Source: an uncultured Alphaproteobacteria bacterium
GTDB lineage: Bacteria > Pseudomonadota > Alphaproteobacteria > ATCC43930 > CGMCC-115725
DNA length: 64,000 nucleotides
Direction: 5' to 3'
Assembly (NCBI GenBank): GCA_963804725.1
Contig: CAWDRN010000016.1
Location: 108,844 to 172,843, forward strand
Shown here: positions 16,752-40,020 of the stretch, piece by piece
How positions within the stretch are numbered: position 1 is the first letter of the stretch
Layout: every line of letters begins with the position of its first letter
The notes under the pieces: model-generated
Databases searched by the model: none
The model's input: the letters and a program-made list of their open reading frames with translations, nothing else
Told to the model about the DNA's origin: nothing
Position numbers and translations under genes: made by a program

Positions 16752-16753
16752 TT

Positions 16754-20051: not shown

Positions 20052-20060
20052 AGCCATCGT

Positions 20061-20831: not shown

Positions 20832-20895
20832 CGTTCCCTCCCGCGGCAGAAAACCGCGGAAGGAAACCTCAACGCGCCAGCAGAGGCGCCATCTA

Positions 20896-21519: not shown

Positions 21520-22161
21520 AACCCCTCACCCTGCCGCTTGGCCTGCCGGCAGAGGCAAGGGCGTGCTCGTAAACCGCAATGAGCTGCGGCCAGCGATCGG
21601 GAAGAAGTTGAGTGGGTCCAAAGCATGACGCCACTGTTGTCGAGCCAGAAGATCCAAAGTCCAAGCTTTTCGCTGAAGGCGGGACGCTCGGCATGGATGT
21701 AGCGCAGCAGAAATAAAAAAGGACGATCGCCAGCAGCCGAAGGCGTCGAACAGCGAGGTATGCACCTGGTTGAACGTCAGGAAGGTACCGTGCTCGTAGC
21801 AGTGCACCAGCGGCGCTGCGAGATCCAGACTGATGGGGCTCGGCCTTGTCATCGCAACTACAAACCCGGACTCTCGGCAGATCAAGCCGCCCGGGCTCGG
21901 CTAAGCCACGGCAAATACAACTAGGCACCGGTCTCCCTATAGGCGAGCGCTCGGCAATCAATCGAAGAACACCGGGACCGGCATCGAGACGCCGAAACAC
22001 CAGCTTCAACAAACGCCCGTCCGAGATCACTTCGGTGTGGTCGAGAGAAAGCGATTCTCATGAGAGTGTCTCGGTGCTATTGGATTGCGAGCGATGCATA
22101 AAGCGTTTGATCGTAAACTGCGAGCATTCCCTGAACAGATCGCTGTAGCTGCGTGCTTGGG

Positions 22162-24068: not shown

Positions 24069-24205
24069 CGGCGAGGGAAGTGGACGTTCCGCAGATGGCC
24101 TGGGTTGGCCGATACCGGAACAGCCGCTCTGGAGCACGCAACGGCAATAAGCAGACGTTCGTTCATGGACATTGTCGCCGGCAGGAAGCGACCCATCCAA
24201 GTCAT

Positions 24206-24410
24206 TGGGCCTCCAGTCTGCCGATCCTGAAAGCCGACCTTCGGCAAGGCCAACCAGCGGCGGCCATGCGCCCATGCCGGCCGCTCCAGACCGCTTGGCC
24301 GTCGCTCGAATGCAGACGTTCGGCCAAGTGCGGCGGTAGCTGCTCAGATATCAGCGGCGCGTGGCAACCGGCTGTAGTTGCTGCCGGCACTTACCGCCGG
24401 TTGGCGGTGG
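24206..24410 (-). promoter_or_regulatory. structured leader R1, cobalamin-riboswitch-like
   Basis: Homologous to 27590..27845. The closing helix is CCAACCGGCGG (24394-24404) with CCGCCGCTGG (24254-24263). A GCCGCTG element and a B12-box-like TCAGGATCGGCAGAC overlap the GGAGG of the downstream ATG at 24205. Confidence 0.4.
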
Positions 24411-24600: not shown

Positions 24601-26694
24601 TCACGGCGCCCGTACCGGACCGATCTGTGGTGTCTGCACCGGCTTTGCCATGCCGTAGAAGATCACGACACCCTGGCCGCCGCAGCGCGTCGAGAGCGCC
24701 TCCTGGGGCTTGCCGATACAACTAGCGATATCCTGCCAGTTGTTCATCACCCAGACACTGCCGGCCGGATCAATCGCGATGTCGGTCTGCATCTGCAGGC
24801 CGCCTCCGACATAGCCGCCGGGTGGTGAAATTTGGTCGCCGGTCATCATGCCAGGTGGACAGGTCTCGGTGCGAACGCCGCACAGCTCCACAATTGGGCT
24901 GTCGGGCATGGCGAAGTTCGAGATCCAGGCGTTGTCGTTGCCGTCCAAAACCACCGCCCACGGCCCGGGTAGGCCACCGCCCATGAAGGGCGAGCCGGGA
25001 TAGGGCGTGCCGTCCGGCCGCAGCAGCGTGACGCTGCCGCTGTCGTAGGTTCCGCCTTGCTGCGTGGACATGGTCGTTGTCATGAAGTCCATGCCGGGCA
25101 CGACACCCCCGAATTTCGCACGGGCATCCATGTCCGCCAGATGGAGCTTGCCCATCAGCCCGTTGCCGAACCGGGTGGTGATCCAGACATTCCCTTGGCT
25201 GTCGACGTTCAGTCCAGCGGGGCTTGCCCCCGAATAAAAGTTCTCGGCCTTGCTGGGATCGGTGGTCGGGAATCGCGTCACGTGCTCGGCGAACGCGTTG
25301 CTCACCCAAATTCGGTTCTGCTGATCGATCGCGAGATGGAACGGTCCCAGAAACGACTCACAGGGCTCCTCGGTCGCGCCCTCGCAAACGATCCGGCCCT
25401 TCGTCAGGTCACCTTTCGGGAAGTAGATCAGCTGGCTCTTCGAGGCGCCGAGGGCCCACACGTCGCCGCTGGGCGTGACGATGATGCCCTGCATGAGCCC
25501 GAGGCGGCCGCCGAACGTGATGCCCTCAGGAGGCGTGAGCGGCTTGCCATTCTTGTCGAACACCGCGATCGAATGGCCGCCATACGTGGTGAACCAGGCG
25601 TTGTCGTGGCCGTCAACGGCAGCGCCGAACGTGCCCCCCTCCATTCCGCCGCCGGTAAAACCGGTGGTGATGGGCGAGAGCGGTTTGCCGTTAGGGGCGA
25701 ACTCGGTGGCATTGCCTTGCCACAGCGCGTCCTGCCCCTGCCAGCCGATCGTGAAATTGTCGCCAAACCAGAGGTTGCCTTCGCTGTCAAACATGGCCTT
25801 GCCACCCGCGCGATACCCACCCCCGTCGAACTTCAGCGGCACGACCCAGGCGCTCGGCGACCAGATCAGGTATGGCATGAACGGAACCGGGCGCATGTTC
25901 GGAGGCTTCGGCTGGCCGTCCATCTTGATAGGTGGAACCGGATAGAACTGATCGAGCAGGGCAAACAACCGTCCGGGTTGGTACCAGGGATAGCGTGCGA
26001 TCAACTCGGCCGCCGTCAGCGTGTCAGTCGGCGCGCTGCCTTTGGGCGGCGCGGCGGCCGCGAACAGCCTGCCGCACGCGTCCTCCACCACGCGCGTGGT
26101 GCAGCCGGCCAGTGCGTCCGCCAGCGTGGCGAAGTTGGCCATCGTCGGCGTCTGGCCGCCGTTGAGCGGCCCCTGAATGGCCTCGCCCCACCCGCCAGTC
26201 GTGATATCGACAAAATTGGGCACATTGCCGGCGGCGATGTGGAGGCCGAGCTCGTGACCCTGTATGGACGGGCCGTCGAGGAACTGTATCGTCGTCACGA
26301 CGGAGGCTATGGTGGTGAATTCGTTGACGACGACATGCGACAGCGGATTGCCGCCGAGCACCGACAGTAGGGCGATCGCAGGGTTGTTGCCGCCCTGCTT
26401 GCTGGCGGCGGGAGTCCCGCCTGTTGCGACAAGGTAGAGGATCGAACCAGCGGGAGTTTGGTCCGCGGACACGACGAAACTTCCGTCGGCACCGGTCGTC
26501 GACTGCGCCAGGCGTGCCGGTGCGTTCGAGCTCGCGGCCCACAGGCTCACTGTCGATCCGGCAACGGCCTTGCCGCCCGCCTGGACCTGTCCTTCGACCC
26601 GTACGGCAGCTTCAGCCGGGCTGGACGCCCAGCCGAGTAATCCTGCCACTATCAGCAGCACGAATATTCCGCTCGCGCGTCCGCAGATGCGCAT
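24601..26694 (-). CDS. secreted repeat protein (carboxypeptidase-regulatory-like N-domain plus NHL/beta-propeller-like repeats)
   Basis: Signal peptide MRICGRASGIFVLLIVAGLLGWASSPAEA, a strong GGAGGAG before the ATG at 26694, and repeated G-x-hydrophobic-W-hydrophobic-x-N/D blocks. Confidence 0.6.
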   Translation of the reverse strand: MRICGRASGIFVLLIVAGLLGWASSPAEAAVRVEGQVQAGGKAVAGSTVSLWAASSNAPARLAQSTTGADGSFVVSADQTPAGSILYLVATGGTPAASKQGGNNPAIALLSVLGGNPLSHVVVNEFTTIASVVTTIQFLDGPSIQGHELGLHIAAGNVPNFVDITTGGWGEAIQGPLNGGQTPTMANFATLADALAGCTTRVVEDACGRLFAAAAPPKGSAPTDTLTAAELIARYPWYQPGRLFALLDQFYPVPPIKMDGQPKPPNMRPVPFMPYLIWSPSAWVVPLKFDGGGYRAGGKAMFDSEGNLWFGDNFTIGWQGQDALWQGNATEFAPNGKPLSPITTGFTGGGMEGGTFGAAVDGHDNAWFTTYGGHSIAVFDKNGKPLTPPEGITFGGRLGLMQGIIVTPSGDVWALGASKSQLIYFPKGDLTKGRIVCEGATEEPCESFLGPFHLAIDQQNRIWVSNAFAEHVTRFPTTDPSKAENFYSGASPAGLNVDSQGNVWITTRFGNGLMGKLHLADMDARAKFGGVVPGMDFMTTTMSTQQGGTYDSGSVTLLRPDGTPYPGSPFMGGGLPGPWAVVLDGNDNAWISNFAMPDSPIVELCGVRTETCPPGMMTGDQISPPGGYVGGGLQMQTDIAIDPAGSVWVMNNWQDIASCIGKPQEALSTRCGGQGVVIFYGMAKPVQTPQIGPVRAP

Positions 26695-26940
26695 GTATCT
26701 CCTCCCTGGCAACGGCAAAGGTGTGGCTGGCCCAAAGACGCACGGATGCTTGACACGAGCGGTCTGCATCACTTGCTCCTAAATGTTTAGAAAAAGGCGT
26801 TCCGTCGAAGGGAGGGTGAGAACTACCGCATCGCCGGCTTTCGTGGCGTGCAGCCGGTGCAGCAAGTGCGGCGCCACCTTCATGTCACTTCGCGGGTTAA
26901 GGGGTGATGATTACCCCCAGACGCCGACTCGGGTAAACAT

Positions 26941-27345
26941 TCAACGGTAACCAACATCAAAGGCTTCGGCATCGAAGGCTCGTTTCTCCAATGATGCGTC
27001 TACCTGGTCCTCGCTGGCGATTTGCCGAGTTAGTACGTTTGAGCGATATGTGGCATAGGCCTGCTGGCTGCCAAAATACACGCACCCGCAGATGGTCGGA
27101 TCACCATAGACATAGACGGTTCTGTCGTCTCTGAAATGACGCACGAATTTGTGTGGCGGCAGGCTCTTCAACGCAGCAAGACGTCGAGGAGTGTTCGCAG
27201 GCTGGGCGACAAATCCTGCCTCAACAAGCATATCTTCTTTGCTTTGCACGTTCTGGGCGTTTTGTGTGTTTGGGACGCTCGACTGACATGCCGAAAGCAT
27301 GAGGCAGAGGGCAACCGCTACACCAATCATCGGACGATTGATCAT
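26941..27345 (-). CDS. lipoprotein of unknown function
   Basis: Lipobox LMLSAC after MINRPMIGVAVALC, and a purine-rich RBS. Confidence 0.6.
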   Translation of the reverse strand: MINRPMIGVAVALCLMLSACQSSVPNTQNAQNVQSKEDMLVEAGFVAQPANTPRRLAALKSLPPHKFVRHFRDDRTVYVYGDPTICGCVYFGSQQAYATYRSNVLTRQIASEDQVDASLEKRAFDAEAFDVGYR

Positions 27346-27517
27346 TTCCGTTCTCCCCTCTCTATCGCGAGACCATTGGCTTGTAAGCGCGCAGGGATCC
27401 GCAGACCCAACATCGTTCGGTCTGATCCTCGCAGCTGGCGCCTTCGGACCAGGCACAAAAACGCAGCGTGGCAATCAATCTAGCTACATTGTTGCCATCA
27501 TTATTCGTGCCGCAATA

Positions 27518-27589: not shown

Positions 27590-27845
27590 CCACTTTGTTA
27601 GTCCAATGGCAAGCGTCGTCGGAACGACAGCCGCCGCCCATGATGCGGCTGTCCGGTTTTCGGCATCTCGACTGCAAAGCGGACGGTCGCAAATCCACCC
27701 GCTGCGGACTTCTGAGCAGAGACTGACACGCTTGGGTGAACGTCCGCATTCGAGTGACGGCGAGGCGGCCTGGAACGACCACCATGGGCGCCGAGCGGCC
27801 GGTACCGCCGATGCTTTCGGCCGGTCTTATAGTACCTTGCACTGC
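27590..27845 (+). promoter_or_regulatory. structured leader R2, cobalamin-riboswitch-like and apparently complete
   Basis: Closing helix GCGTCGTCGG (27613-27622) with CCGCCGATGC (27805-27814), 9 of 10 pairs. Perfect 9-bp hairpin GACAGCCGC/GCGGCTGTC (27626-27653). GGTCGCAAATCC core and B12-box-like ATAGTACCTTGC. It points into the 3' end of the polymerase gene. Confidence 0.4.
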
Positions 27846-27866
27846 CTTCACGGTTACAGCCGCCCG

Positions 27867-30126
27867 CTACTCACGGGGTAGCAATGGCATAAAATCCGGC
27901 TGCGCCTCGAGCAGCAGGTTTTCGTCGATCGTTTCGAACTCGCTGCCGTCTCCGGCGATTTCGATAAGTCTGTCGAAATCAGCCGGTTTGTAGCCTTCGC
28001 TCTCTGCGAATGGCGAAGGAAGCAAAATAGGGTAAGTCACCAGGCAGCCGTCGTCATCGAGCCGGACGCGCATGGCGTCGCGTTTGCTCCGCCATTCGAA
28101 GCTCATCTGGCGCGTCTCGACTCTCCATCTTCCGGCTAGCGAAGGCTTGCCCCGGGCGAGTGCGAGCCGGCATCCGTAAAACACCCGGATCTTGACCGGG
28201 ACCGAGGGGATGAGCTGCCGGTCACGAAGCATATTTGCGATGGCGCTGGGCTGACGCAGCTTTGCGGTCCACTCAGCAAACATCCTTTGAAACTCAGGCA
28301 CGGCATCGCCGATGAACGAGCGCGGCGCGCCGCGCGATTTGAGCGATGCCTGTATCGGATGGCGACCAGTAAACGCCGGGCTGCGCTATGAAGAGATCGG
28401 GCCAGACTTTTTCTTCCCATTGTCCCAGGCCTTCGCCGATATCGAGCGACAACGGCCGGGTGCTGAATACCGCGTCGGTCGCCAGCATAACTATGGCTTC
28501 GGGATCCTGCCCGACGGCTTCGATGAGTCGCGCTCTGGTCATCGCAGTGACGAGCCCGGCCGCGACCACATCGTGATAGGGGCCGCGTCCGGTACGCTGC
28601 GCCATCTTGCCGTACAGCGAAGCCAATCCGAGCTTTAGCGGATAGCCGCGGGTTGCGGAACCGATCCGGCTGCGCTCGTCGTACAGCGCTGGCACCCAGT
28701 CAAACATCCGGCAATTACACTCGCACCGGGCGATCCACAAATCGCGGACCGCGATCATGTTGGTGCCGAGCCAGCGTCGGGCCGCTGCAATTTCGCATGA
28801 CCAGTACCAGCCGGTTCCTTGCACCGGCCAAAACAGGCCGCCATTATGCCGGAACGGCAGGCCGCACCATGGTCCGGCGGGGTGCGTGAAGGCGATTTTT
28901 GCGAGATAAAGCCCGCTCTCGGGCAAACGGCTGGCGCGCGGCCGGTGAAGCCATCGAGTATGCAGCGGGCACGGCAGCTCGGGCATTCCGGCGGGATAGG
29001 CGCTGTTTATGTCATATTGGTAAACCAGCCTGGCGAACGGACCGCCGATCGGTCCGATGCGCGACACTTCGGTACGGCCACCATAATAGGCGAAGTTGGC
29101 GGCGGCCTCGAATTCAGGATCGCGTTCCGGCCGGCGAACCCTTGCCGGGCTCCGGTTTTTGCCGGGCTGGCGTCCGGCAAGAGCCGCTGTCTCCTTCGCG
29201 GTGAGAGGACGCTTCGGTATACCGTGGTGATCCAGCAACGCTGCCGCGAGCCATCCTGCGCCGCTCCATTGCTTCGGCGAGATGCCTGCCGTGGTACAGA
29301 CCGTGCGGAATTCCGTCATCAGCATAGCCGCACAGCGGCATTCCAGCTTGCAGTATTCGATGATTTCCGGAGTCAGCTCGGAGAATTCGTCGCGATGCTC
29401 TTTGTTTCTGGTGATGAAGGCGCGTTCCTCTTCGCTGCCGATGTTCCATTTCTTGACCGCTTCCGTAAACGAGCACTGGAAAAAACCGAATGCCTCGTAA
29501 ACGGTTCGGGTTGAGCCTTTGATGATGCCCGGTCTCGGCTGGCTGCGATCGACGCGGGCGACCCGGAAATACTGGCCTTGCTGATAGATGAGCGCGTAGT
29601 CGCCCCAATAGGTATAGCACGGGCCGTTTTTGCCTTGCGGCGGGTCGAGTATCCGCTTCAAGGTCGGGATCTTGCTGATCCCGCGTAAGATCTGATTTGC
29701 GTCGTAGCCGAAGTAAAAGCCGATGAGTATCGGTTCGGCGGGAAGCGACAACAGGAATTCGAGACAATCGCGAACGGACAAGGGCTTGCCGTCGCAGTGC
29801 TTAACGTGTTCCTCGCCTGCGGTCGGTCCTGAAGCAGCCATCAACAAATAGGGTTGGCGTCCCAGGTGATCGGTTCCGGCGCCTTCGCCGTCGATCGCCA
29901 TAAACGGGCGAAGCTTCGTTCGGGCATGGTTGCGTTTGCGTTCCTTGGCAGCCTCGCGCTGCTCTGGGGTCTGCCGTTTACGCGCTTCCTGCTGGCGGAT
30001 ACGCGCTCGCTCACGCACACGCTGCCGCCGGAGTTCCAGAAGACACTGGTAATCTGCGCCGCGCGCCCGGATCATTTCGTCAATACGCGCTCTGATGACA
30101 CGATCGATCATCGCCGACACTTCCAT
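27867..30126 (-). pseudogene. family-B DNA polymerase (protein-primed / primer-independent-like) with one frame break (or an assembly indel)
   Basis: ExoI FMAIDGEG, ExoII FYFGYDANQIL, ExoIII EYCKLECRC, motif A YDINSAYPAG, motif B KLGLASLYGK, motif C LATDAVF, then LKSRGAP after a frame switch near 28340-28375. ORFs 28294..30126 and 27867..28301 join. The span is 2260 nt, one more than a multiple of 3. Confidence 0.75.
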
Positions 30127-30224
30127 CCCTGAGGGCTTATGGCTGCGGCTTCCGGCATCTGATACTCCTTACGCTCTCGCTCGCCGCCGGCTGCCGGCCC
30201 GCGTGCTGTAATAAAGTCTCCAGA

Positions 30225-30569
30225 TCATGCTGCGGTTCTTGCCGGTAAATGGGTCAGGCAGATCTGACGGAACGCTACCGGATAATCCAGAAGCACCTTC
30301 AGCAACTGGTCTTGCCGGCCGAGCGAAAGACTATTGAAGGCATCGCGATCGCGTTCGTTAAGCTTGAACCGGTAGTCCTGCCGTGCCCTGATTGCCGTGA
30401 GCCCGCGTTCTGCTTCCGTGGCCCGCCGGTTCGCACGCCGGCGTACTTCCGGCTTCTTCGTCCGGCCCGCCGTCGCCCGCGCCAGCACGGCCCGGCGCGC
30501 CAGCTCGGCTCTGTGCAATTGCGCATAGCGCTCGCTGCCAGGTCGAAAGGGGAACCGTTTCCGCGCCAT
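30225..30569 (-). CDS. small basic hypothetical protein immediately upstream of the polymerase
   Basis: 114-aa Arg/Lys-rich ORF in operon position between the SSB-like gene and PolB. I recognised no family. Confidence 0.4.
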   Translation of the reverse strand: MARKRFPFRPGSERYAQLHRAELARRAVLARATAGRTKKPEVRRRANRRATEAERGLTAIRARQDYRFKLNERDRDAFNSLSLGRQDQLLKVLLDYPVAFRQICLTHLPARTAA

Positions 30570-30720
30570 TGCCGGCTACTCGGCTCGATTGCTCCGGCCG
30601 GATTGCTTGTGTCTTTGGGGGGAGTCGGCTAGAAGAATCATGACTTTTCTCCAAAGTCACTTGCACTCGCATCTCCCCCGGCCCGTCGGCGGTGCCGGGG
30701 GAGACTTTCATACCTCTCGC

Positions 30721-31195
30721 TCAGAACAGAATTTCGTCGCTGTCGAGATCGTCTTTCGGCGACGAGCGATCGGTCCGACCGTTCGATCGGCCGCCTTGTT
30801 CGGGCGCTGCTCCGACGCGGCGAGGCGATGCCTGCGCGGGCCCGCCGGCGGCGGCCGCGCGCATCGCGACCGCGCCCGGCATGACGCGGATGCCGCGCAC
30901 TTGCTCGCCACGAAAATTGACCCACACAGAATGAATGCGGATGGGCCGCCCGATCCAGGCATCCGTGTCGTCACCGAAGGCCTTGCGCAAGGCGTCGCGA
31001 TTGCCCTTGTTCAGGGGCAGCCTACGCTGCCGCGACCTCGCCGTTGCTGTCGCAAAGCTCGAGGACGAGCTTTTTTGCCGGATCGTCGCGGCCGATGGTT
31101 TCCGCCGAGACCGTGCTGATGACCCAGCTCTCGGGCTGATCGCCGAAATCGGCGGCGGTGAAGTAGGGCGAATTGTCGAAGTCACTTGCACGCAT
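30721..31195 (-). pseudogene. SSB-like small DNA-binding protein with an acidic C-terminal tail and one frame break (or an assembly indel)
   Basis: GGAG-ATG start at 31195 (MRASDFDNSPYF..KKLVLELCDSNGE). After a shift near 31022-31035 it reads ..LPLNKGNRDALRKAFGDDTDAWIGRPIRIHSVWVNFRGEQVRGIRVMP.. and ends DDLDSDEILF, which resembles the SSB tail DFDDDIPF. 475 nt. Confidence 0.5.
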
Positions 31196-31242
31196 CGACT
31201 TGCTCCTTTTGGTTGATGCTCCAAAAAATCCAAAGTCTTCTC

Positions 31243-31512
31243 TCAAGCGGCATCTTTCGGGCGCCGCCTGACAATGCAGCGCGAGCCGGCAGGCTCGGGA
31301 TCGGACAGGCGCAGTGCCGCCGGCGTCGCCTCAGCAAGCCTTCGGCCCACGGTTTCGACAATGTAAGTGCGCAGCAAGAAGCCGGCATATTCGCTTCGCG
31401 CCGCAATCGGCAGCTTGCCTTCACCGATCCAGATTGAAATACGAGCAACCGTAACGGCGAGGCGCTGTGCCGCCTCTTCGAGAGTCAGAAAACGCGGAAA
31501 ATCTTCGGTCAT
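31243..31512 (-). CDS. excisionase/MerR-type HTH protein
   Basis: FLTLEEAAQRLAVTVARISIWIGEGKLP. AGGAG lies about 12 nt upstream of the ATG at 31512. An alternative ATG at 31584 has no RBS. Confidence 0.55.
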   Translation of the reverse strand: MTEDFPRFLTLEEAAQRLAVTVARISIWIGEGKLPIAARSEYAGFLLRTYIVETVGRRLAEATPAALRLSDPEPAGSRCIVRRRPKDAA

Positions 31513-31660
31513 CGCGGGTGGGGTCTCCTCGACCCGCGAACGTATGCGAGTTTTTACCCTGCGTGGTGCATCGGTGGTGGTCATTTGGTAATTGACCGGT
31601 TGCGGGCGGCGGGGCAGGCTTCCATCGACAAAAAAGAGGCAGTGTTTTGGAGAGATCGTC

Positions 31661-32629
31661 GTGCGCCGGCCTAAGAAACCCAAACGGCTGAGCGAGGCCG
31701 CGCTCCTTGCTTTAACCGGGATTTCACACCGCAACCTAACGCGTCGGCGTCAGCAACGCTTGGTCAAGGCAGTGGAACCCCGCCGCGGTCGCGGACATGG
31801 TGGCGGGCGTGGCACCACACCGCTCGAATATTCGAGCGCGGAAGTGCCGAAAATCGAAGACCTGAAAAGATGGCGCCGAAAATTCAAGAACTCCATCGAG
31901 TGGCGATGGCGTCTGTCACGCGACGGTCACGACGTTGGGATCGCGCCCGATCTTGCCGAAACGCTAAAAGAAACGCTGAATTGGCTAAGAGAGGCATTGA
32001 AGAGGGAGGCGTTGAAGATCGAAACGCCCGCCGACGTCGATGCGATAACCGCGTGCCTTTGGAAGCCGGCGGATATGCCGCGCGGCAATCCGCTACGAAA
32101 AATCTTCAAGGGTCTTAATCCGAAAGAGGCGCGCGACCTGTTGACGATGCTCTTTTGCGTTGTTCTCGGCATCCGGCTGCCGCTGTTCGACGAGCCGAAC
32201 CCCTACCCATTTCAGGTTTTCAAGCGTGTCTTCGGACTGCCGAAAGAATGGCAAATGCCGCCGGGTCTCTTCGACGTTTTCCCTAACATGCACGACCAAA
32301 TTGTCACCGGGCTCTCCAAGGTCACCGCCGAAGAGTTGAAAAGCGCATGGAGAGTGTGCCGGTTTTTAGATCGCGTCCTCAGTGAGCCGGAGATTCCGAA
32401 GCGCGATGTCAAAGTCATCACCAGATCCGGCATTCCTTCACAGCCGATCAAGCTAGCCAGTTTGATGTGGTCGTCGCCGGTCACGCGCGCCGCGACCGTC
32501 GGCCTCATTATCTTCTGGCTGCGTGGGATCAAGTCTGCGCTTGGCAAAAACGACGCGGCTGTCCTCGACCGGTCTGTCGCTCCCATCTTCAAGTATGCCA
32601 CCTCTGGCGCAAGCACGACGGAATGCTAA
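31661..32629 (+). CDS. hypothetical protein with an N-terminal HTH-like segment, upstream of the Cas1 gene
   Basis: GGAGAG lies 6 nt before the GTG at 31661. RLSEAALLALTGISHRNLTRRRQ. No recognisable family. The stop overlaps or abuts the Cas1 start. Confidence 0.5.
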   Translation: MRRPKKPKRLSEAALLALTGISHRNLTRRRQQRLVKAVEPRRGRGHGGGRGTTPLEYSSAEVPKIEDLKRWRRKFKNSIEWRWRLSRDGHDVGIAPDLAETLKETLNWLREALKREALKIETPADVDAITACLWKPADMPRGNPLRKIFKGLNPKEARDLLTMLFCVVLGIRLPLFDEPNPYPFQVFKRVFGLPKEWQMPPGLFDVFPNMHDQIVTGLSKVTAEELKSAWRVCRFLDRVLSEPEIPKRDVKVITRSGIPSQPIKLASLMWSSPVTRAATVGLIIFWLRGIKSALGKNDAAVLDRSVAPIFKYATSGASTTEC

Positions 32630-32637
32630 GGCGCGCC

Positions 32638-34107
32638 ATGCACGCCGACAACACGATCTACACCCGCATCAAGAACGGCATCGTCGTCGTCAGCGGCACT
32701 GGTCCGGCGATCCATATCGACGGCAAACGCCTCGTCATCCGCGACGGGCCGCTCGAAACACCACCCTTGCGCCTAACGCGCGCGGAAGCCCATCGCCGGC
32801 TGCGGCATATCATCGTCGTCGGCGATTACGGCGGATACGTCAGCTTCGACGCGCTGCGCTGGCTGCGCGACGCCGGCGTAGGATTCTCACAGCTTGATTG
32901 GAACGGCACCGTCATCGCTACAAGCCCGAGCCCTGATTTGCCGGCACTGCGCAGGGCGCAGGTGCTGGCCTGCAGCGGTGCCATTCCGGGAGCCGTCAGC
33001 GCCATCACGCGCGAAATTTTGCGCGTCAAGCTTACCGGGCAAGCCCGAGTGGCGAAGATGCTCAGCTCGGTCGAAGGTATCACTCCAAAGCAATCACTCG
33101 CTGCGAGCGCTGCCATCGCCGAGCTCGCTGCGGAAGTAGCACGCGAAACGGACATCTCTCGGATGCTGATGTTCGAAGCTCATGCTGCGGGGTTTTACTG
33201 GCAGATCTGGGAAGATGTCCCCATCAGGTTCGCGCGGCGCAACCCGAAGCGTCTTGGGCCGGGCGGACGCTGGCAGCCGGGCCGGCCCGATCCATGGCTG
33301 GTATTCGGTCCAAGGGCGTCACTCCTGACCGGGCAACCCTACCGGGCGACAACGCCGGGAAATGCTGTCTTGAACTGGCTATATGCGATCTGTCAAACCG
33401 AACTGACGATTGCCCTTCTTACCGCCGGCATCGATCCTGGTATCGGGCTCTTTCATGTTGATATGCCAAACCGGCCGTCACTGGCTCTCGATGGTATCGA
33501 AGCGCTGCGGCCCTATGTCGATCTTTGGCTGTTCGGCTATCTCGTCAATTCGGTCTTTGCCAACCGCGACTTTACCGAGTTGCGCGATGGCGAGGTCCGG
33601 CTGACGCACCCGCTCAATGCACACCTTGCCCATACCGCGGCGCTGTGGCGTCAAGTGTGCGAGCCTGTCGCGGACTGGCTCAAAGAGAGCTTTATAGGCG
33701 CGGCAGAGACATCGCTTGCCTATACTCGGCGATCACTCAACCAGAGCAGCCTCTCTGGCGCTGGAGCAGTACTTCGCGAGGGGCGCAGCATAGTGTCGGC
33801 CGCCCAACCGCGGCACCGCGCAAGGGGGCAAGGCGTTGCCTCGCCCGAACGGTCGCGGCAACAGGGGCGTCCGGCGGTCTCGCCGCTAGCGCGGGTGCTG
33901 CCGACCCTGGCTTCTTCTTCGCGGCCGGCGCCGGGTTCGTGGGGGCCGAACCATTGGTTCGGCCGGCTCACGGATGAACCGGTTCCACGTATATGCCGTG
34001 AGTGCGGGCGCGCGATGCTGCGAATCCACCGCGTATTTTGCAGCCTTAAATGTGCTGTGTATAACTATCGAGCGCAGAACCGTTCCTCATCGGGCCAGGC
34101 CGAATAA
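32638..34107 (+). CDS. cas1: Cas1-family integrase (casposase-like, stand-alone)
   Basis: N-domain IIVVGDYGGYVSFDALRWLRDAGVGFSQLDWNG. Helical domain FEAHAAGFYW (Glu), PGNAVLNWLYAICQTEL (Asn), GIDPGIGLFHVDMPNRPSLALDGIEALRPYVD (His, Asp, Glu). This aligns with E. coli Cas1 E141/H208/D218/D221. The C-terminus has CRECG...FCSLKC cysteines. An alternative ATG is at 32623. Confidence 0.8.
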   Translation: MHADNTIYTRIKNGIVVVSGTGPAIHIDGKRLVIRDGPLETPPLRLTRAEAHRRLRHIIVVGDYGGYVSFDALRWLRDAGVGFSQLDWNGTVIATSPSPDLPALRRAQVLACSGAIPGAVSAITREILRVKLTGQARVAKMLSSVEGITPKQSLAASAAIAELAAEVARETDISRMLMFEAHAAGFYWQIWEDVPIRFARRNPKRLGPGGRWQPGRPDPWLVFGPRASLLTGQPYRATTPGNAVLNWLYAICQTELTIALLTAGIDPGIGLFHVDMPNRPSLALDGIEALRPYVDLWLFGYLVNSVFANRDFTELRDGEVRLTHPLNAHLAHTAALWRQVCEPVADWLKESFIGAAETSLAYTRRSLNQSSLSGAGAVLREGRSIVSAAQPRHRARGQGVASPERSRQQGRPAVSPLARVLPTLASSSRPAPGSWGPNHWFGRLTDEPVPRICRECGRAMLRIHRVFCSLKCAVYNYRAQNRSSSGQAE

Positions 34108-34124
34108 TGCGGCCTATCGAATGA

Positions 34125-34214
34125 CCGGTTTGGGTGGTTTTGCGACGGTCCGCTGCCACGCTGCTGGCGAGAAAAGCCGACGTTCCGCCGATGGCTAGGA
34201 TTGGCCGAAAGCGG
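34125..34214 (-). promoter_or_regulatory. R3, a 5' fragment of the same structured leader family, cut off next to the Cas1 stop
   Basis: The minus strand reads CCGCTTTCGGCCAATCC..ATCGGCGGAACG..GCGGACCGTCGCAAAACCACCC. The last segment matches R2 GCGGACGGTCGCAAATCCACCC at 20 of 22 positions. The 3' half is absent. Confidence 0.35.
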
Positions 34215-34485
34215 CTGGACAGCTTCGTGGAATGGCCTATCGAAAAGAAGAAGCCAACGCCGACCGGCCGCTGGTCCGCCTGCATCAGCTTACGCGTTAC
34301 GTTGTCGATGGCGGCGATGTGATCGGTATCAACGGCGCGGCGCAAGCCGAACGTCCACGCCAGCAAGGCTGTGCCCAGCAAGACGGGAAAGTCGCGAAAG
34401 CTGGGAAGCGCCCAAACCCAGGCTACGACATTGAGGGCGTCACCGTCGAGTGAGGCAGCCGAGCCATATGGCGACTGCGAAGCTT
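34215..34485 (-). pseudogene. NiCoT (HoxN/NixA-type nickel/cobalt transporter) N-terminal remnant
   Basis: ..FRDFPVLLGTALLAWTFGLRRAVDTDHIAAIDNVTRKLMQADQRPVGVGFFFSIGHST, then homology stops. There is no in-frame start codon upstream. Confidence 0.6.
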
Positions 34486-34534: not shown

Positions 34535-35116
34535 CTAGGGAAGACAGGCACCGGCCAACTTTGCCCCGGATTCCGAGGACGGCAAGTATTTGAGGAACTT
34601 ACCCGTTCCGTCCATCACATAGATCAGGGACGAATGATCTATGAAATAGGTGCCGTCTGGCCCGTCGCGCCGTTGGTAATAGACGTCGAACTCCTTGGCG
34701 ACCTTCGCGGTGGCCGCCACGTCGCCCACCAAACCTTGGATGCGCGGGTCGAATGCCTTGACGTAGTTCGCCATCACTTTCGGCGTGTCGCGCGCCGGAT
34801 CGATGGAGATGAACAGCGGCACGACATTTTTCGCCGCTGGGCCAAGCTTTGCCATTGCTTGAGAGATGTTGTTGAGAGCGGTCGGGCATGCGTCCGGGCA
34901 ATAGGTGTAGCCGAAATAAATCAACATCGTCTTGCCGCGGTAAGTCTGATCGGTCACCGTCTCGCCAGTGTTGGCATCGGTCAACTTGAATGGCCCGCCA
35001 ATGTTGGGGGACGCGGCGGAGGGCAGCACCAGCCACACGACCGCAACTGTCGCGGCAATCGCCGCCAGCATGGCAATGGGTACCAGCAGAATGCTGTCCC
35101 GGAACTTTTCGGACAT
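34535..35116 (-). CDS. SCO1/SenC-family copper chaperone
   Basis: N-terminal membrane anchor, YFGYTYCPDACP (CxxxC) and FIDHSS motifs. Confidence 0.85.
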   Translation of the reverse strand: MSEKFRDSILLVPIAMLAAIAATVAVVWLVLPSAASPNIGGPFKLTDANTGETVTDQTYRGKTMLIYFGYTYCPDACPTALNNISQAMAKLGPAAKNVVPLFISIDPARDTPKVMANYVKAFDPRIQGLVGDVAATAKVAKEFDVYYQRRDGPDGTYFIDHSSLIYVMDGTGKFLKYLPSSESGAKLAGACLP

Positions 35117-35528
35117 GGCGGCACACTACACCGCACCAGTGGCCCCGCCAATCGACACGCTTGCGAGGATTTGGTCAGCAAACAGCGAATTTAGGTATGC
35201 TGACCGGTTCCGCCGCGCTTTTTCTGCTTACTAGGCCTGGCCCGAAGCAGCCCCTGCAGCTTCGGCGGTGACGTGGCCGTTAAATCTAGTTAAGCGGCGT
35301 CTTGGTCTGCGACAAATTGTCTATATTTTGGGTTGTTGCGAGCGCGCGCCATTTTGGGCAATGCTGCGAGCGACTGGAGGAAAACCATTGACCAACGCCG
35401 GGAGCGGTCATGGTCATCATTTGGGGGGGACGCGCGTCATACCGTGCGCAGCTGTCGATACTATTCGTTCGTTACTTCGAATTAGGAGATCCTCGAAAAG
35501 CTGGTTCACGGCGTGCGCGGCACTGGCG

Positions 35529-35837
35529 ATGTTCGCGATCGTCGTGCAGACGATGTTGCCGTTCGTGCTCGCGGCCGACATCGCCGCCTCGGCGAACGCG
35601 ACGCCGATCTGCCATGCTACGACGAGCGACGAACAAAATAACCATCAACCCGGCCCGGCTAAATCCTGTCCGATCTGCGCGGCGCTCGCGGCAACAATCG
35701 CCGCACCCGCGCCGACGGCGCCATCGATCCCGCTGCCGCACATTGTCGTCGCCCGACTGACCGTCGCGCTCCACGAGAAAGCGGCGGATATTTCCCTGCC
35801 GCGTTCCTACCGCTCTCGCGCACCCCCCCTCGCGTAA
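35529..35837 (+). CDS. DUF2946-like small protein with Cys/His motifs
   Basis: Hydrophobic N-terminus then ICHA...CPICAALA. This type of protein often accompanies copper genes. The start is uncertain (ATG at 35529; the ORF is open further upstream). Confidence 0.5.
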   Translation: MFAIVVQTMLPFVLAADIAASANATPICHATTSDEQNNHQPGPAKSCPICAALAATIAAPAPTAPSIPLPHIVVARLTVALHEKAADISLPRSYRSRAPPLA

Positions 35838-35903
35838 TACCAGGACAATTGAGTTTTCGCTGGCTCGCTTGCGGGCCGCTATTCAATTTCATGGGAGTTG
35901 CGC

Positions 35904-36842
35904 ATGTCCCGACTTTCCGCACGGGCCGCGTTGGTCGGCCTGATGATCGCCGCCGTTCCCACAGCGCATGCCTTGGCGCATGCCGTGTGTGGCAACCGCG
36001 TGTTTCCGCCGACCCTGATCATGGACGATCCCGGCATGAACGACGAAGCGTCGTTGCCGACGATTCAATACGCGCCAATCCCGGCCTCGGCCGGAACGCC
36101 TTCCGGCTCGAGCACGAGCTGGGGTTTTGAATGGGATAAAACCATCTTCTCTGCCGGCAACGGCAACAATGTCTTCTACAATGTGTTCGGCTTTGCCATC
36201 AATGGCGATTACATCACCCGGCGCGGCGCCGGCGAGGATCTGAACGGCTGGGATAATTTCACGCTAACCCTCAAGGATCAGTTCTATTGCCTTCCAGAGC
36301 ACGAATTCATGATGTCGGCGGGCGTCATTCGTGACTTGGGCGCGACCGGCTCTGGACAATTGTTGCGGGCGAGCATCATTCCGTACACGAGCAGCACCGC
36401 ACCGACCTGGTATTTCGGCAAGGGCTTCGGCGATCTGCCGATCGGTCCGCTGCGCGCCTTCGCGGTCACGGGCGAGCTGGGTTACGCCATTTCGGATGCG
36501 CCCAGCGTGTTGCCCGGCGAATGGGAATACTCGTGGTCGATCCAATATTCGATGCCCTACCTCACACAGCACGTAGAGGCGGTGCCAATCCCGGAATTCT
36601 TCAATCACCTGATCGCGCTGGTCGAGTTCTCCTACGCGGCGCCGACCGACCAACCCACCACCGGCGTCATCGCGCCCGGCATTTTCTATGAGGCCGAGGC
36701 GTGGCAGGTCGGCGTCGAGGCGGTCATTCCCGCCAACGCGGCGACGCGGGCATCGCAGGGCACCGGCTTCATCGTCCAGTTCCATGTTTTCCTGGACGAC
36801 CTCATGCCCAATTCGCTCGGCAAGCCTTTGTTCAGCTTCTAG
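35904..36842 (+). CDS. putative outer-membrane beta-barrel protein
   Basis: Signal peptide MSRLSARAALVGLMIAAVPTAHA, alternating amphipathic strands and a C-terminal ..KPLFSF. Confidence 0.5.
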   Translation: MSRLSARAALVGLMIAAVPTAHALAHAVCGNRVFPPTLIMDDPGMNDEASLPTIQYAPIPASAGTPSGSSTSWGFEWDKTIFSAGNGNNVFYNVFGFAINGDYITRRGAGEDLNGWDNFTLTLKDQFYCLPEHEFMMSAGVIRDLGATGSGQLLRASIIPYTSSTAPTWYFGKGFGDLPIGPLRAFAVTGELGYAISDAPSVLPGEWEYSWSIQYSMPYLTQHVEAVPIPEFFNHLIALVEFSYAAPTDQPTTGVIAPGIFYEAEAWQVGVEAVIPANAATRASQGTGFIVQFHVFLDDLMPNSLGKPLFSF

Positions 36843-36851
36843 GGGGCGGTC

Positions 36852-37202
36852 ATGCGAAAGCTGGTCCTGGCCTGTGCCGCGCTGGCGATTGCCGGCCCGG
36901 CGTGGGCGCACGCCTTTCTCGACCATTCGAGCCCGGCGGTGGGCGCCACCGTGCCGGCGCCGAAGGAGGTCTCGATCTGGTTCACCGAAGAGGTCGAACC
37001 AGCCTTCAGCCGCATCGAGGTCACCGACGGCGCCGGCAATCGGGTCGATGACGGCGGCACGCATATCGATGCCGCCGATCACGAGCTGTTGCACGTCGCG
37101 GTGAAGCCGCTATCGCCGGGAGCCTACAAGGTGACGTGGCACGTCGTGTCAGTGGATACGCACCATACCCAGGGCGATTTCACCTTCACCGTCGCGCCGT
37201 GA
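36852..37202 (+). CDS. copC: copper resistance protein CopC
   Basis: Signal peptide then HAFLDHSSP..; YKVTWHVVSVDTHHTQGDFTF. Confidence 0.85.
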   Translation: MRKLVLACAALAIAGPAWAHAFLDHSSPAVGATVPAPKEVSIWFTEEVEPAFSRIEVTDGAGNRVDDGGTHIDAADHELLHVAVKPLSPGAYKVTWHVVSVDTHHTQGDFTFTVAP

Positions 37203-38011
37203 ACCTGACGCTGGTCGCCATCCGCGCGGTCTACTTCTTCGCCGCCCTGCAATTGTTCGGTTGGCTCATCTTCGATTTGTTCATCGGACAAGCGGGGTGG
37301 GGACGGCGGGCGGCGCCACTGGCGGCCGTCGCCCTTGTGGCGATGACCGCGTGGCTGGCAATCGAGACGACGCTATTGAGCGGCGAGCCGCTTTCCGGCG
37401 AGACACTCGACATCGTGTTGCGTGAGACGCAGTTCGGCATGCTGTGGATTTGGCGCGCGGTGCTCCTCGTCGCTCTGTTAGCGTTGACCTTATGGCGGAT
37501 TCGGCCAGCGACGTTCGTTGCGGCGATCGGCGCCGCTTCGGTTCTAATCCTCACCGCGGCCGCCGGGCATGGCGGCGCCGACCGCAGCAGCATCCATTTG
37601 ACGGTAGACGCGATTCATCTGCTGGCCGTCGGCTCCTGGCTCGGCGGCCTCGTGCCGTTCGCCGCCGCGATGCGCCGGGCCGACGCCGGCGCAATCGCCT
37701 GGCGTTTCTCGACGTTGGGCGTGATCAGCGTTTGCGTCATCTTGGCAACGGGCGCGATCAACGCCTGGTTCATGGTCGGCAATATCCCGGCGCTGATCGG
37801 CACGCCGTACGGCCGACTGTTAATCGTCAAGATCGCATTGTTCTGCATCATGGTGTCTATCGCGGCGATCAATCGCTTTCGCCTGACGCCGCGCGGCGCT
37901 GTCGCGACGCTGTGCCGCAACGCGCAGATCGAGACGGCGCTCGGCGTCGCAATTGTGATGATCGTCGCCGCACTCGGCACCATGCCGCCCGCATATGGGG
38001 TACAGAATTGA
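37199..38011 (+). CDS. copD: copper resistance protein CopD (membrane)
   Basis: The GTG at 37199 overlaps the copC stop (GTGA). Multiple transmembrane segments, with HLLAVGSWLGGL and RFSTLG motifs. Confidence 0.8.
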   Translation: MNLTLVAIRAVYFFAALQLFGWLIFDLFIGQAGWGRRAAPLAAVALVAMTAWLAIETTLLSGEPLSGETLDIVLRETQFGMLWIWRAVLLVALLALTLWRIRPATFVAAIGAASVLILTAAAGHGGADRSSIHLTVDAIHLLAVGSWLGGLVPFAAAMRRADAGAIAWRFSTLGVISVCVILATGAINAWFMVGNIPALIGTPYGRLLIVKIALFCIMVSIAAINRFRLTPRGAVATLCRNAQIETALGVAIVMIVAALGTMPPAYGVQN

Positions 38012-38217
38012 CCCCGTATCACAGCCATCCGCGTCCGCAGGCGCGGTAATTGGCGCAGCCGGCACAAACGAGCCCGGCTACGCGCCCAGCGCAGGCGACA
38101 GCACTTCTTACGGCGCCAATTTCACAAGGCCGCAGCCTTCCACCCCGCGCTTCGCGGCCGCTTTGGAAACGAAATACCCAGCCGAGATACCGGCGCAACC
38201 GTAACGAGGAGACCATC

Positions 38218-38658
38218 ATGGTGAAGATCTTTTCGCCGACCGCGGCATTTGTAATCTGCCTCGCTTCCGCCGCGTTGGCACAAAGCGGACCGATCAGCGT
38301 CTCCGATGTCTGGGCCCGCGCCTCCAACGTCTCGACGGGCGCCGTTTATATGACCATCGCCAATTCGGGCGGCACGGACGATCGGTTGGTCGCCGCCCAA
38401 TCGCCGGTCGCGAAAACCGTGCAGCTCCATATTGAGACCAACGATAACGGCATCGTGAAAATGCGTCCCTTGAAGTCGATCGACGTCAAGGCAAACAGCA
38501 AGGCGACCTTGGCGCCAGGTGGCATGCATTTCATGTTGATCGGCCTTGTGCATCACTTGAAGGACGGCCAGAGTTTTCCACTGACGCTGACCTTCGAAAA
38601 CGTCGGCGAAATCCACGTGACCGTCACGGTGAAAAAGGCCGGCTCGATGGGCGGATGA
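38218..38658 (+). CDS. periplasmic copper chaperone PCu(A)C (DUF461)
   Basis: GAGGAG RBS, signal peptide, and the motifs VWARAS, GAVYMTIAN and GGMHFMLIGL. Confidence 0.8.
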   Translation: MVKIFSPTAAFVICLASAALAQSGPISVSDVWARASNVSTGAVYMTIANSGGTDDRLVAAQSPVAKTVQLHIETNDNGIVKMRPLKSIDVKANSKATLAPGGMHFMLIGLVHHLKDGQSFPLTLTFENVGEIHVTVTVKKAGSMGG

Positions 38659-39024
38659 AGATGTGACAACATCCCAATCGGTTCGCAGCCCCGAAAATCT
38701 CATATCGTCGTGTGGTAATCGATCGCAACCGAATACCGGTGGCGGCCTCACTGCAGGTGTCGACTTTGCACTGCTGTACGCGGAGAGAGCGTTGCTCTTG
38801 CCAAGACAAGACGTTGTCCGTTGTGGCGCACAAAAGACGAATCTTACGACTGATCCTACGGCCGCGTTGAAGCTGCAGTGTCAGTTGCCGGAGCGGCCGG
38901 TATGGGTCGAAACCGGTAATTGGATATGGCCGTTGATATAAGCACTTGTAGTGGTAGCAGCCCGGCCTTCGGCCGCCGCAGGACCTGCGACCCGGCCCAG
39001 CGGTAACAGTAGGCCCGACCCCGC

Positions 39025-40020
39025 GTCACGAATGCATCGCTTTAACGCAACCACATCAGCATGATCGCGCCGGGATCGAGCGGCCGGACGCGGGCGTTCT
39101 CCTGCACGACGAAATCGGCGTGGGGTGGTCCTGTCATCGCCGTGTATGGCGGTGCCACGGCCGGTTGCGGCGCGCGCGCCGGCCGCTGGCCCAGGGAAGC
39201 ACCAGTCACTGGCCTTGCCATCGCCGGCACGGTTCCCGCGCTATAGACCCGGTTGGCGTCGATCGGCGTGACCGCTTTCAACAGGTTATTCAGCACAGAG
39301 AGATCAAGCGTTTGCATCACAGCCGCGGGCCGAGCGACCAAAGTACGACCCGGCAGCGCCGGATGTGGCGGCCGTGCCGATCGCCGTGACGGCAGCGACG
39401 CATGCGTTGCCTCCGGCCGCTCCGCTCGGACAGCCCGGCGTTGCCGGGAAACTTTGCTGCGCCATCCCTTCGAACGCGACAGCGGCATATCCGCCGGCGG
39501 GCGCCAGGCCGGTTCCGTACGCGGCGGCGGACTATCGGTTATCCGTCTGATCTTCGGTACGTGATGTTCAGGGATAGGCCGTACACCGGTGCACTAGCCG
39601 GAAACATTCTGCTGCGGTACACCAAGCAACTGCGCCAGGCGTTTGCCCGATACACCAGACCGCGCGATCCGAGAGCGCAATTCATGGGGGGTCATCTGCT
39701 CAGCGTATCCGTCGATCCGCAGTCCGGCTACGCTTCAGACTCACCTCTCGTGCCATTGTGGCCGCGCCGATCGCGCTTAGCGTCCGATTCCTTTGATATC
39801 GGCGTCAAGCGCGATCCAGCAACCCGTGCGAGGAACGCCAGCGTTTGGCACACGCCTACCGGGGCGTTGGGCTGAAGCTTGACGTTAAATGGTTTGTGTT
39901 TGCCAGCTGTGTCAATTGCACAGTTTGTATTTACATCTGTGTAAATGACACACCTTCGGGTGATCCAGCCGTGTAAGGTCACTGTGTAAGCTAGCGGCTG
40001 GTAGCGACGCTCGCATCGTG
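39025..40020 (-). repeat. about 1-kb repeat, copy B (inverted relative to copy A)
   Basis: Reverse complement aligns with 23072..24068. The outer end abuts a truncated IS630 transposase gene. Confidence 0.85.
39042..39695 (-). pseudogene. Cro/YdaS-like HTH protein with an in-frame TAG (copy B)
   Basis: Same 654-nt frame as copy A. The TAG at 39594-39596 is codon 34, the same position as in copy A. The C-terminus ..HADFVVQENARVRPLDPGAIMLMWLR is intact here. Confidence 0.55.

Follow-up and report, generated by a model that had tools for sequence, protein, structure and literature searches.

The gene at positions 32638 to 34107 of the DNA analysed here, a stretch of 64,000 nucleotides from an uncultured Alphaproteobacteria bacterium (GenBank assembly GCA_963804725.1, contig CAWDRN010000016.1, positions 108,844 to 172,843 of the forward strand; hereafter the window), encodes a Cas1 homologue of the integrase type that, judged from its sequence, is apparently intact. 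We find that it is probably the integrase (casposase) of a bacterial casposon; such DNA transposons are self-synthesising and rely on a Cas1 homologue in place of a DDE or tyrosine recombinase. We read it in this way because the protein belongs to the casposase clade of Cas1, its catalytic tetrad is intact, its gene is linked to that of a family B DNA polymerase (PolB), and no CRISPR system accompanies it. The element is a family-3-like casposon, a new branch of a rare known mobile element and not a new kind of element; it departs from the original family 3 in two ways, in the type of its polymerase and in having no detectable HNH endonuclease gene. Casposons have been put forward as ancestors of the CRISPR adaptation machinery, which captures spacers, and few bacterial casposons have been described. 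To our knowledge, in the literature searched, biochemical work covers archaeal casposases only, those of families 1 and 2.

The kinship with Cas1, which the initial annotation had proposed by eye from resemblances to the E. coli protein, is borne out by profile, sequence and fold comparisons. Pfam Cas_Cas1 matches the protein with an E-value of 2.8e-28 (99 bits, cut-off 22) and the PADLOC Cas1 models match it as well. NCBIfam TIGR00287, 'CRISPR-associated endonuclease Cas1', scores just over its cut-off (72.5 bits against 71.7), and the subtype-specific Cas1 models all remain far under theirs, that for type I-C, for example, at 62 against 385. The best match among the sequences of the PDB is the casposase of Methanosarcina mazei (6OPM, 7e-15, identity about 20%); E. 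coli Cas1 does not reach the threshold of E 0.01 in the same search. In the N-terminal domain, for which a resemblance to Cas1 had also been claimed, VSFDALRWL...LDWNG aligns with LTLEAIRWL...LDWNG of the M. mazei enzyme. An AlphaFold2 model built from an alignment of 22 sequences is of moderate quality, with a mean predicted local distance difference test score (pLDDT) of 67 and values mostly of 70-90 in the core, and its best match in a fold search is again the casposase (6OPM_B, 9.9e-14; template modelling (TM) scores are modest, 0.35-0.47). Translation starts, as annotated, at the ATG at 32638 (MHADNTIY), in agreement with the conserved N-terminus MHADDTNYT of the relatives; the open reading frame (ORF) listed from a GTG at 32467 is an upstream extension of the same frame. 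The protein is full length, all conserved residues are present, and its nearest relative is 75% identical.

A similar picture emerges for the active site. We re-aligned the family with reference casposases and Cas1 proteins, 14 in all, taken from the supplement to Krupovic et al. 2014 (PMC4046053). In this joint alignment E180 (in FEAHAAGFYW), H273 (in GLFH), D285 and E288 (both in SLALDGIE) share columns with the catalytic residues found in six casposases and in seven CRISPR Cas1 proteins; among the latter is a type I-E protein with the E. coli-like motif AFVYDIAD. The full Cas1 catalytic set, E141, H208, D218 and D221 in E. coli numbering, is therefore present; none of the four positions is substituted or out of register, and all four are invariant across 22 aligned family members. 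The reference for the inactive 'Cas1-solo group 1' has a Ser at the first catalytic position. From the His to the Asp there are 12 residues in the casposase, as opposed to 10 in type I-E, which confirms the 2-residue insertion and the unchanged 3-residue acidic spacing noted in the initial annotation. Its view that the protein is an active-type integrase and not a degenerate domain is supported by the intact, in-register tetrad, as far as sequence can tell.

Among the references of the same supplement, the four best BLASTP matches are all family 3 casposases: Saccharopolyspora spinosa (34% identity over 329 residues, 3e-38), Nitrosomonas AL212 (NitAL212; 28%, 7e-32), Streptomyces albulus (30%, 9e-31) and Henriciella marina (26%, 3e-24). 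They are followed by Aciduliprofundum boonei of family 2 (21%, 4e-21) and N. koreensis of family 1 (21%, 1e-8), and the CRISPR Cas1 references match at 2e-8 or more weakly. A profile of the family ranks the references nearly alike, the sole change being an exchange of ranks between S. albulus and NitAL212. A neighbour-joining tree (BLOSUM62 distances, 295 columns, 200 bootstraps, 14 references), small and no substitute for a full maximum-likelihood analysis, recovers the family itself in 100% of the bootstraps, the family together with the two actinobacterial family 3 casposases in 98%, the family with all four family 3 references in 62%, and all casposases together in only 57%. By BLASTP, tree and best PDB match alike, the protein falls among the casposases, and within them it groups with the bacterial family 3.

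How does the window element compare with the described members of that family? The family 3 casposons StrAlb-C1 and that of S. spinosa (Krupovic et al. 2014, 2016) share with it a casposase-clade Cas1 with an intact tetrad and a bacterial host, and their casposases, 30-34% identical over about 320 residues, are the best references. The Streptomyces elements, moreover, have a polymerase with affinity to Toil-like tectiviruses, as does the window element (PMC5894146). The differences are considerable nonetheless: described family 3 members are only 26-34% identical to the window casposase; the host of the window element is of an alphaproteobacterial lineage known mostly from metagenomes that are probably of soil; the core of the element is 6.5 kb, against about 16 kb, with no capsid gene and no HNH gene detected; and its casposase ends in a putative zinc finger, whereas those of StrAlb and HenMar have no extra domains according to the 2014 paper (PMC4046053). 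The polymerase of the element is of the DNA_pol_B_2 ('organellar and viral'), Toil-like type and not the RNA-primed type nested among family 2 polymerases that marks family 3 as defined in 2014/2016. Most described family 2 and 3 casposons carry an HNH nuclease. Such a gene is present in three of the four original family 3 members (Krupovic et al. 2014, 2016), and the ORFs of the window unit gave 0 matches to HNH families in Pfam and PHROG searches. Four casposon families have been described, a family 5 from hot springs has been proposed (PMC9755687), and PMC9966878 mentions a wider survey that is unpublished; no description of the clade of the window casposase was found in the literature searched.

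The polymerase gene lies 2.5 kb upstream of the casposase gene, is divergent from it, matches DNA_pol_B_2 and is frameshifted. Its change of frame is single, falls near 28343-28357 (tblastn 28354/28343) and lies outside any homopolymer; either a genuine mutation or an error of assembly could account for it, and the polymerase is one ORF of 747-788 residues in the related loci L002, L006, L012, L027, L069 and L071 and in the P0002 locus. A full-length homologue matches phrog_11768, 'DNA polymerase' (8e-36). Compared with 50,697 phage records, the polymerase matches only actinobacterial tectiviruses, namely Toil, P19, WheeHeim, Forthebois, RickRoss and six Microbacterium phages; the matches cover 65-78% of the protein at an identity of 26-28%, with E-values to 2e-43. 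It has no match among PDB sequences. The nearest phage kin of the polymerase are thus the protein-primed family B polymerases of Toil-like tectiviruses, and the polymerases of Cas1-encoding Streptomyces elements are likewise Toil-like (Yutin et al. 2018, PMC5894146). No other tectiviral genes were detected in the window element, and the host phylum differs. An affinity to the polymerases of pipolins (piPolB) was considered and set aside: tblastn gave no match in 72,556 plasmids, a collection that presumably includes plasmid-borne pipolins, and there was none in PDB sequences. Pipolins resemble the window element and its relatives in being integrative and in having their own family B polymerase and variable defence cargo (PMC11551731), and differ in combining piPolB with tyrosine recombinases where the window element has a Cas1 integrase.

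The linkage of the two genes is not peculiar to this copy. This context, a divergent polymerase gene within a conserved casposon-like module, decides how the gene is read, and the initial annotation of the gene made no mention of it. The divergent arrangement of polymerase, 114-residue ORF, helix-turn-helix (HTH) protein, a further ORF and Cas1 recurs at 18 loci, at least 15 of them distinct, and also at L069-L072 and on the P0002 contig, and the genes that flank the module vary between loci. The casposase has at least 245 close homologues, and a HMMER search of 1.84 billion cluster representatives returned 3525 proteins at E <=0.001, of which 414 (50%-identity clusters) at E <=1e-30. All genome matches are alphaproteobacterial or 'proteobacterium' metagenome-assembled genomes; the metagenome matches bear contig names in the style of the Joint Genome Institute (JGI), from which a soil origin of the relatives is probable. 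One locus, L034 (1515-3426), is an internally deleted copy in which the C-terminal end of the polymerase lies about 760 nt from a 5'-truncated Cas1, and in another, L010 (5926-11470), both polymerase and Cas1 carry several frameshifts. The family therefore leaves decayed copies behind, as expected of a mobile element.

Several relatives have neighbours of their own. The flanks in L071 (1-16400) hold McrBC, an MT-A70 methylase and a retron-like reverse transcriptase with PRTase-CE; those in L002 (3700-6035) hold SSB, RES and a resolvase; and those of the P0002 locus hold a protein kinase, a UvrD-like helicase, GmrSD and Mrr. Such defence-type genes may be part of the relatives' elements. The L002 element also adjoins, at 11858-21644, tail genes of siphovirus or gene transfer agent (GTA) type (Phage-tail_3, Phage_BR0599, DUF2460), which are more likely an adjoining prophage or GTA cluster than members of the element.

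The element lies outside any CRISPR-cas locus. Scans for tandem repeats and for direct repeats at short spacing found no CRISPR array in the 64-kb window, and no other cas genes were found there; neither Cas2 nor Cas4 appears in the precomputed Pfam lists of the relatives' neighbours. The pairing of Cas2 with a repeat-spacer array that marks a CRISPR adaptation module is thus found neither in the window nor at the related loci.

Beyond the Cas1 domain, the casposase carries a tail that the initial annotation had described as of low complexity and rich in cysteine, and so we find it. The stretch of residues ~355-447 abounds in S, A, R, G and P, shows little conservation and many insertions and deletions, and is modelled with pLDDT below 50; it probably forms a flexible, disordered linker. 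The motif that follows, C453-x2-C456-x11-C468-x3-C472, is invariant or nearly so in 42 sequences, and F467 and G457 are conserved too. In the wider clade, among the best 150 of the 414 representatives, 102 are at least 430 residues long; 86 of these 102 have a similar four-cysteine motif directly past the Cas1 domain, and none of the 102 has one at the N-terminus. When the last 55 residues are modelled alone with AlphaFold2 from the 42-sequence alignment, the motif (pLDDT 78-85) forms a short hairpin with the CxxC, then a helix starting from FCSxxC. The predicted layout is that of a treble clef and not of a zinc ribbon. The profile matches of the tail in Pfam and NCBIfam, all sub-threshold, are to the C-terminal part of PLATZ, DUF2116 ('probable treble clef'), zf-FCS and YacG. 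Foldseek gave no significant match for the tail model; the top superposition, itself not significant, is on YacG in its complex with gyrase (4TMA_K; TM 0.52, root-mean-square deviation 2.3 A, 37 columns), with MYND and TRASH/MYM domains near it. The fingers of YacG, FCS (MYM), TRASH and DUF2116 have, as does the tail, a hairpin that bears the CxxC knuckle and a helix that begins with FCSxxC, but the tail matches all of them short of a curated threshold or a significant Foldseek E-value. The comparison is suggestive of a treble clef of YacG/FCS/TRASH type, as distinct from a classical three-stranded zinc ribbon, and the motif is likely to bind zinc, as the model and the conservation of the cysteines indicate. 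To the question raised in the initial annotation, whether the cysteines form a zinc ribbon, the four conserved cysteines with their modelled knuckle hairpin and helix suggest, at sub-threshold level, a treble clef instead.

The tail also differs among relatives. In 13 of 22 aligned relatives about 100 extra residues follow the finger, with a conserved PHPRH-containing HTH-like segment that gives weak HTH_31 and HTH_3 matches, so that the statement in the initial annotation that casposases more often carry a C-terminal HTH is right for the family. The window casposase and its closest relatives (P0002, P0003, P0005 and P0012) end soon past the finger and have no HTH. Fusions of this kind have a precedent: in AceAut-C1 (Candidatus Acetothermum autotrophicum) and NitAL212-C1 a zinc-binding domain is fused to Cas1, as described in the 2014 paper (PMC4046053), whose published alignment is trimmed to the Cas1 core. 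AceAut-C1, with a zinc-binding domain and an HTH that are both C-terminal, has the architecture of most relatives of the window casposase; the window casposase and its nearest relatives differ in having the finger without the HTH. The M. mazei family 2 casposase (6OPM) has the same two-domain Cas1 architecture and active-site motifs, but ends in an HTH that is essential for activity, where the window casposase has a long, probably disordered linker and a putative zinc finger (PMC6977970). Deletion of that HTH abolishes integration, and its authors suggest that it reads sequence beside the target (PMC6977970); family 1 casposases have no HTH and are nevertheless sequence-specific (PMC8464041). 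By analogy, the tethered zinc finger, together with the HTH in most relatives, is likely to be a DNA-targeting module.

Between polymerase and casposase lie further conserved genes (Table 1). For the ORF that ends just before Cas1, comparison with Pfam, NCBIfam, PHROGs, PADLOC and the PDB sequences gave no match. L006 has a homologue of it at the same position, 58% identical, and L012, L071 and the P0002 locus also have ORFs there. The small HTH protein matches phrog_66, 'excisionase and transcriptional regulator' (5.5e-4), and L001 and L071 have HTH_17 ORFs at the same position. The DNA at 30631-31186, across the conserved 170-residue ORF, is homologous to L012 6203-6717, where called genes lie. 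The basic 114-residue ORF, for which neither Pfam nor PHROG gives a match, is a candidate terminal protein by virtue of its position.

Table 1. Features of the candidate casposon in the window (nucleotide positions, unless residues are stated).
Feature	Position	Strand	Basis or remark
Candidate left terminal inverted repeat, AGCGGACGGTCGCAAATCCACCC	27678..27700		21/23 complementary to 34132-34154
Conserved sub-terminal block with invariant palindrome TCGAATGC..ACGTTCG	27695..27791		77% to reverse complement of 24268-24364
Family B DNA polymerase, C-terminal ~144 residues, other frame	27867..28301	-	One ORF in relatives; tblastn
Family B DNA polymerase, N-terminal 610 residues (exonuclease motifs, polymerase motifs A-C)	28294..30126	-	Pfam DNA_pol_B_2, 1.8e-8
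Basic 114-residue ORF directly upstream of the polymerase	30225..30569	-	Kept upstream of PolB in L001, L002, L005, L006 and L010
Conserved ORF, 170 residues as listed	30721..31233	-	No family match
Small HTH protein (weak HTH_17, excisionase-like)	31243..31734	-	Weak Pfam HTH_17 and Rv2175c_wHTH; likely start an internal Met near 31584
ORF of up to 345 residues, ending 8 nt before the Cas1 start	31592..32629	+	Start uncertain (overlaps opposite-strand HTH ORF)
Casposase (Cas1 homologue), 489 residues	32638..34107	+	Pfam Cas_Cas1; sequence and fold matches to 6OPM; family 3 casposase affinity
Casposase domains			N-terminal beta, residues ~1-100; catalytic helical ~118-350; variable linker ~355-447; zinc-finger module ~448-476
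Span of catalytic codons	33175..33501	+	E180 33175-33177; H273 33454-33456; D285 33490-33492; E288 33499-33501
CxxC-x11-FCSxxC motif (C453, C456, C468, C472), probable treble-clef zinc finger	33994..34053	+	Conservation and AlphaFold2 model
Candidate right terminal inverted repeat	34132..34154		25 nt past the Cas1 stop codon

The ends of the element are less clear than its genes. The two candidate terminal inverted repeats, the left one 167 nt past the last ORF on the polymerase side, would bound an element of 6477 bp. Such a pair is unusual: in 300 shuffles of the two 500-nt flanks none reached 23 nt, and the longest with up to two mismatches was 18. Several observations here and elsewhere nevertheless weigh against a casposon. 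At 23 nt the repeats are short, and no convincing equivalents were found in L001, L002, L005, L006, L010, L012, L020, L022, L027 or L069-L072. No target-site duplication is present at 27677/34155; HenMar-C1 is listed with a direct repeat of 1 nt in the 2014 supplement (PMC4046053). Homology to close relatives ends with Cas1 itself, at ~34100-34109. The sub-terminal block is missing at the right end and recurs, inverted, at 24268-24364, 3.3 kb to the left, so that the ends are not cleanly defined. To these points are added the frameshift in the polymerase and the HNH nuclease that goes undetected in the 6.5-kb unit.

Other sequences near the ends deserve mention. A 30-nt repeat in L027 was rejected as a terminal repeat, since it lies inside the Cas1 coding region. 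The sub-terminal block, 80-97 nt long, has a further counterpart in reverse complement at L010 11399-11470 (80% identity), past the Cas1 gene of this distantly related, decayed element, and could be a binding site or the end of a second element. Neither a conserved structure nor coding is supported for this 97-nt block: RNAalifold gave one compensatory pair only, and by our own count the periodicity of mismatches is not significant. Two copies of a 52-nt direct repeat (79%) lie at 24067-24118 and 34163-34214, one just outside the right inverted repeat and the other near the inner end of an arm of the 1-kb inverted repeat described below. The minus strand at 34046-34381 holds part of a gene for a NicO/HoxN-type nickel transporter (Pfam E 1e-19): only its first 52 residues are encoded, and the break lies about 70 nt outside the right repeat. 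A six-frame motif scan of the window, a weak negative, did not find the remainder, and the original junctions may therefore be lost.

A question remains, is the gene the integrase of a casposon or does another account serve it better? TIGR00287 just over its cut-off, the database names of relatives and the PADLOC Cas1 models would suit a CRISPR-associated Cas1 whose array and partners lie elsewhere or were lost. We regard this as extremely improbable, given that 64 kb hold no array, that the loci with Pfam lists show neither Cas2 nor Cas4 close to Cas1, that the subtype models fall so far under their cut-offs, that the CRISPR references match at 2e-8 or worse where the casposases reach 3e-38, and that the linkage to PolB is consistent. 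A Cas1-PolB module domesticated by the host, for instance for defence or DNA repair, within genomic islands would account for relatives that sit among defence genes (McrBC, MT-A70, retron-like reverse transcriptase with PRTase-CE, GmrSD, Mrr, RES) and for terminal repeats not being found in most of them. It is very unlikely in view of the varied genomic contexts and the degraded copies; no core protein besides Cas1 matches a PADLOC model, and defence cargo is common on mobile elements, pipolins being an example (PMC11551731). Also unlikely is that the gene encodes the integrase of a Toil-like tectivirus provirus and not of a capsid-less transposon. The polymerase has its nearest phage kin in Toil, WheeHeim and the Microbacterium tectiviruses, the casposase groups with those of S. 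albulus and S. spinosa (98% bootstrap), and the Streptomyces albulus/noursei elements, initially called family 3 casposons, have been reinterpreted as such proviruses with a divergent double jelly-roll capsid (Yutin et al. 2018, PMC5894146). Pfam misses divergent capsid proteins; in the unit and among the relatives' neighbours Pfam and PHROGs detect neither a capsid protein nor a packaging ATPase, with the limit that divergent capsids need structure-based detection. On the other side, the ORFs of the 6.5-kb unit are all accounted for and leave no space in which capsid and ATPase genes could lie, the window Cas1 has no relative in IMG/VR, and the tail-like genes beside the L002 element are of siphovirus/GTA type and not tectiviral.

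Whether this particular copy still moves is a separate matter. The frameshift, the want of a target duplication and the rearranged flanks mean that it may no longer be autonomous, and there is nearly an even chance that it is a dead relic, an open Cas1 frame in an immobile, decaying element where the gene has no current function. Such a state would agree with the damaged polymerase, the right end without its sub-terminal block, the disrupted NicO gene without its remainder, the mosaic of IS21, IS630, Mu-like and serine-recombinase genes that extends over 25 kb, and the decay of copies elsewhere (L010, L034). Against it, Cas1 is full length with its conserved residues intact at 75% identity to the nearest relative, and the frameshift, though not at a homopolymer, could be an assembly error in a metagenome-assembled genome. 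In any case a relic concerns the state of the copy and is compatible with the gene being a casposase.

If the element is or was a casposon, its mechanism may be envisaged by analogy with the enzymes of M. mazei and A. boonei. Oligomers of the casposase would bind the 3' ends of the terminal inverted repeats, and the metal centre of E180, H273, D285 and E288 would join these ends to staggered positions in the target; repair of the gaps would then yield a target duplication. The element would be copied by its own family B polymerase of Toil-tectivirus type, probably in a protein-primed manner, and the terminal protein could be either the product of the small basic ORF that precedes polB or the basic N-terminal part of PolB itself. 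The zinc finger on its flexible linker, followed by an HTH in most relatives, could give sequence-specific recognition of the target or of the ends.

Both hallmark genes, casposase and polymerase, are nearest to those of actinobacterial Cas1-encoding tectivirus-like proviruses. It is possible, rather than probable, that the family represents a large clade of soil alphaproteobacterial casposons in which a minimal core of ~6.5 kb, able to gain defence cargo, combines a Toil-type polymerase with a casposase of family 3 type that bears a treble-clef finger on a tether and, in some members, an HTH as well. If so, the casposase-polymerase pair has moved as a unit between tectiviruses and capsid-less transposons, and across phyla, which would provide a second link between casposons and replication modules of the tectivirus type; the zinc finger, found in most full-length representatives, would be the ancestral DNA-targeting module of bacterial casposases. 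The family is abundant; it would offer a compact bacterial casposon core for experiments, and the natural comparison of proteins that have finger and HTH with those that have the finger only bears on target choice by casposases and, by extension, by Cas1-Cas2. The analysis should be of use to those who study casposons or the beginnings of CRISPR adaptation, and for correcting annotations, given that the present database label of the relatives, 'CRISPR-associated endonuclease Cas1', is misleading.

The element lies in a mosaic region of 25 kb with a large serine recombinase, IS21-like and Mu-like genes and an IS630 fragment, and we interpret the locus as an insertion with later rearrangement, possibly lying next to what is left of a second element. 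The window contains no tRNA genes, and Rfam gave no match between 20 and 42 kb. An inverted repeat of ~1 kb (23072-24071 and 39020-40020; 91% identical overall, 99% in the outer 588 nt) showed neither a convincing ORF nor an Rfam match. Between its arms lie 15 kb, among them the Cas1 element and a copper-handling cluster, and the right arm borders directly on the C-terminus of an IS630-type transposase (LPKYSPDLNPIEQVFAKLK from 40021). We considered and rejected these arms as giant terminal repeats of a 17-kb casposon: the right arm runs into the transposase, the flanks share no duplication, and homology to the relatives spans only 27806-34109. The copper cluster, to the right of the element at 34535-38658, comprises SCO1/SenC (34535-35116, minus strand), DUF2946, a 314-residue ORF, CopC (36852-37202), CopD (37136-38011) and PCuAC (38050-38658). 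To the left, between the inverted block copy at 24268-24364 and the left end of the Cas1 element, the minus strand at 24601-27474 encodes a 723-residue secreted beta-propeller-like protein (weak Reg_prop and SGL matches) and a putative lipoprotein of 177 residues; the two may be cargo of a neighbouring element. Further left, a 23-nt tandem repeat of 4.4 copies (CCGGGCGACATCATCTCGGAACG), with inverted copies 6.3 kb away (14567-14622 and 20897-20998), brackets a Mu-transposase-like gene (15972-16769), the serine recombinase (17925-20051) and an IS21-like gene (20025-20831), and this pair may mark the ends of another mobile element.

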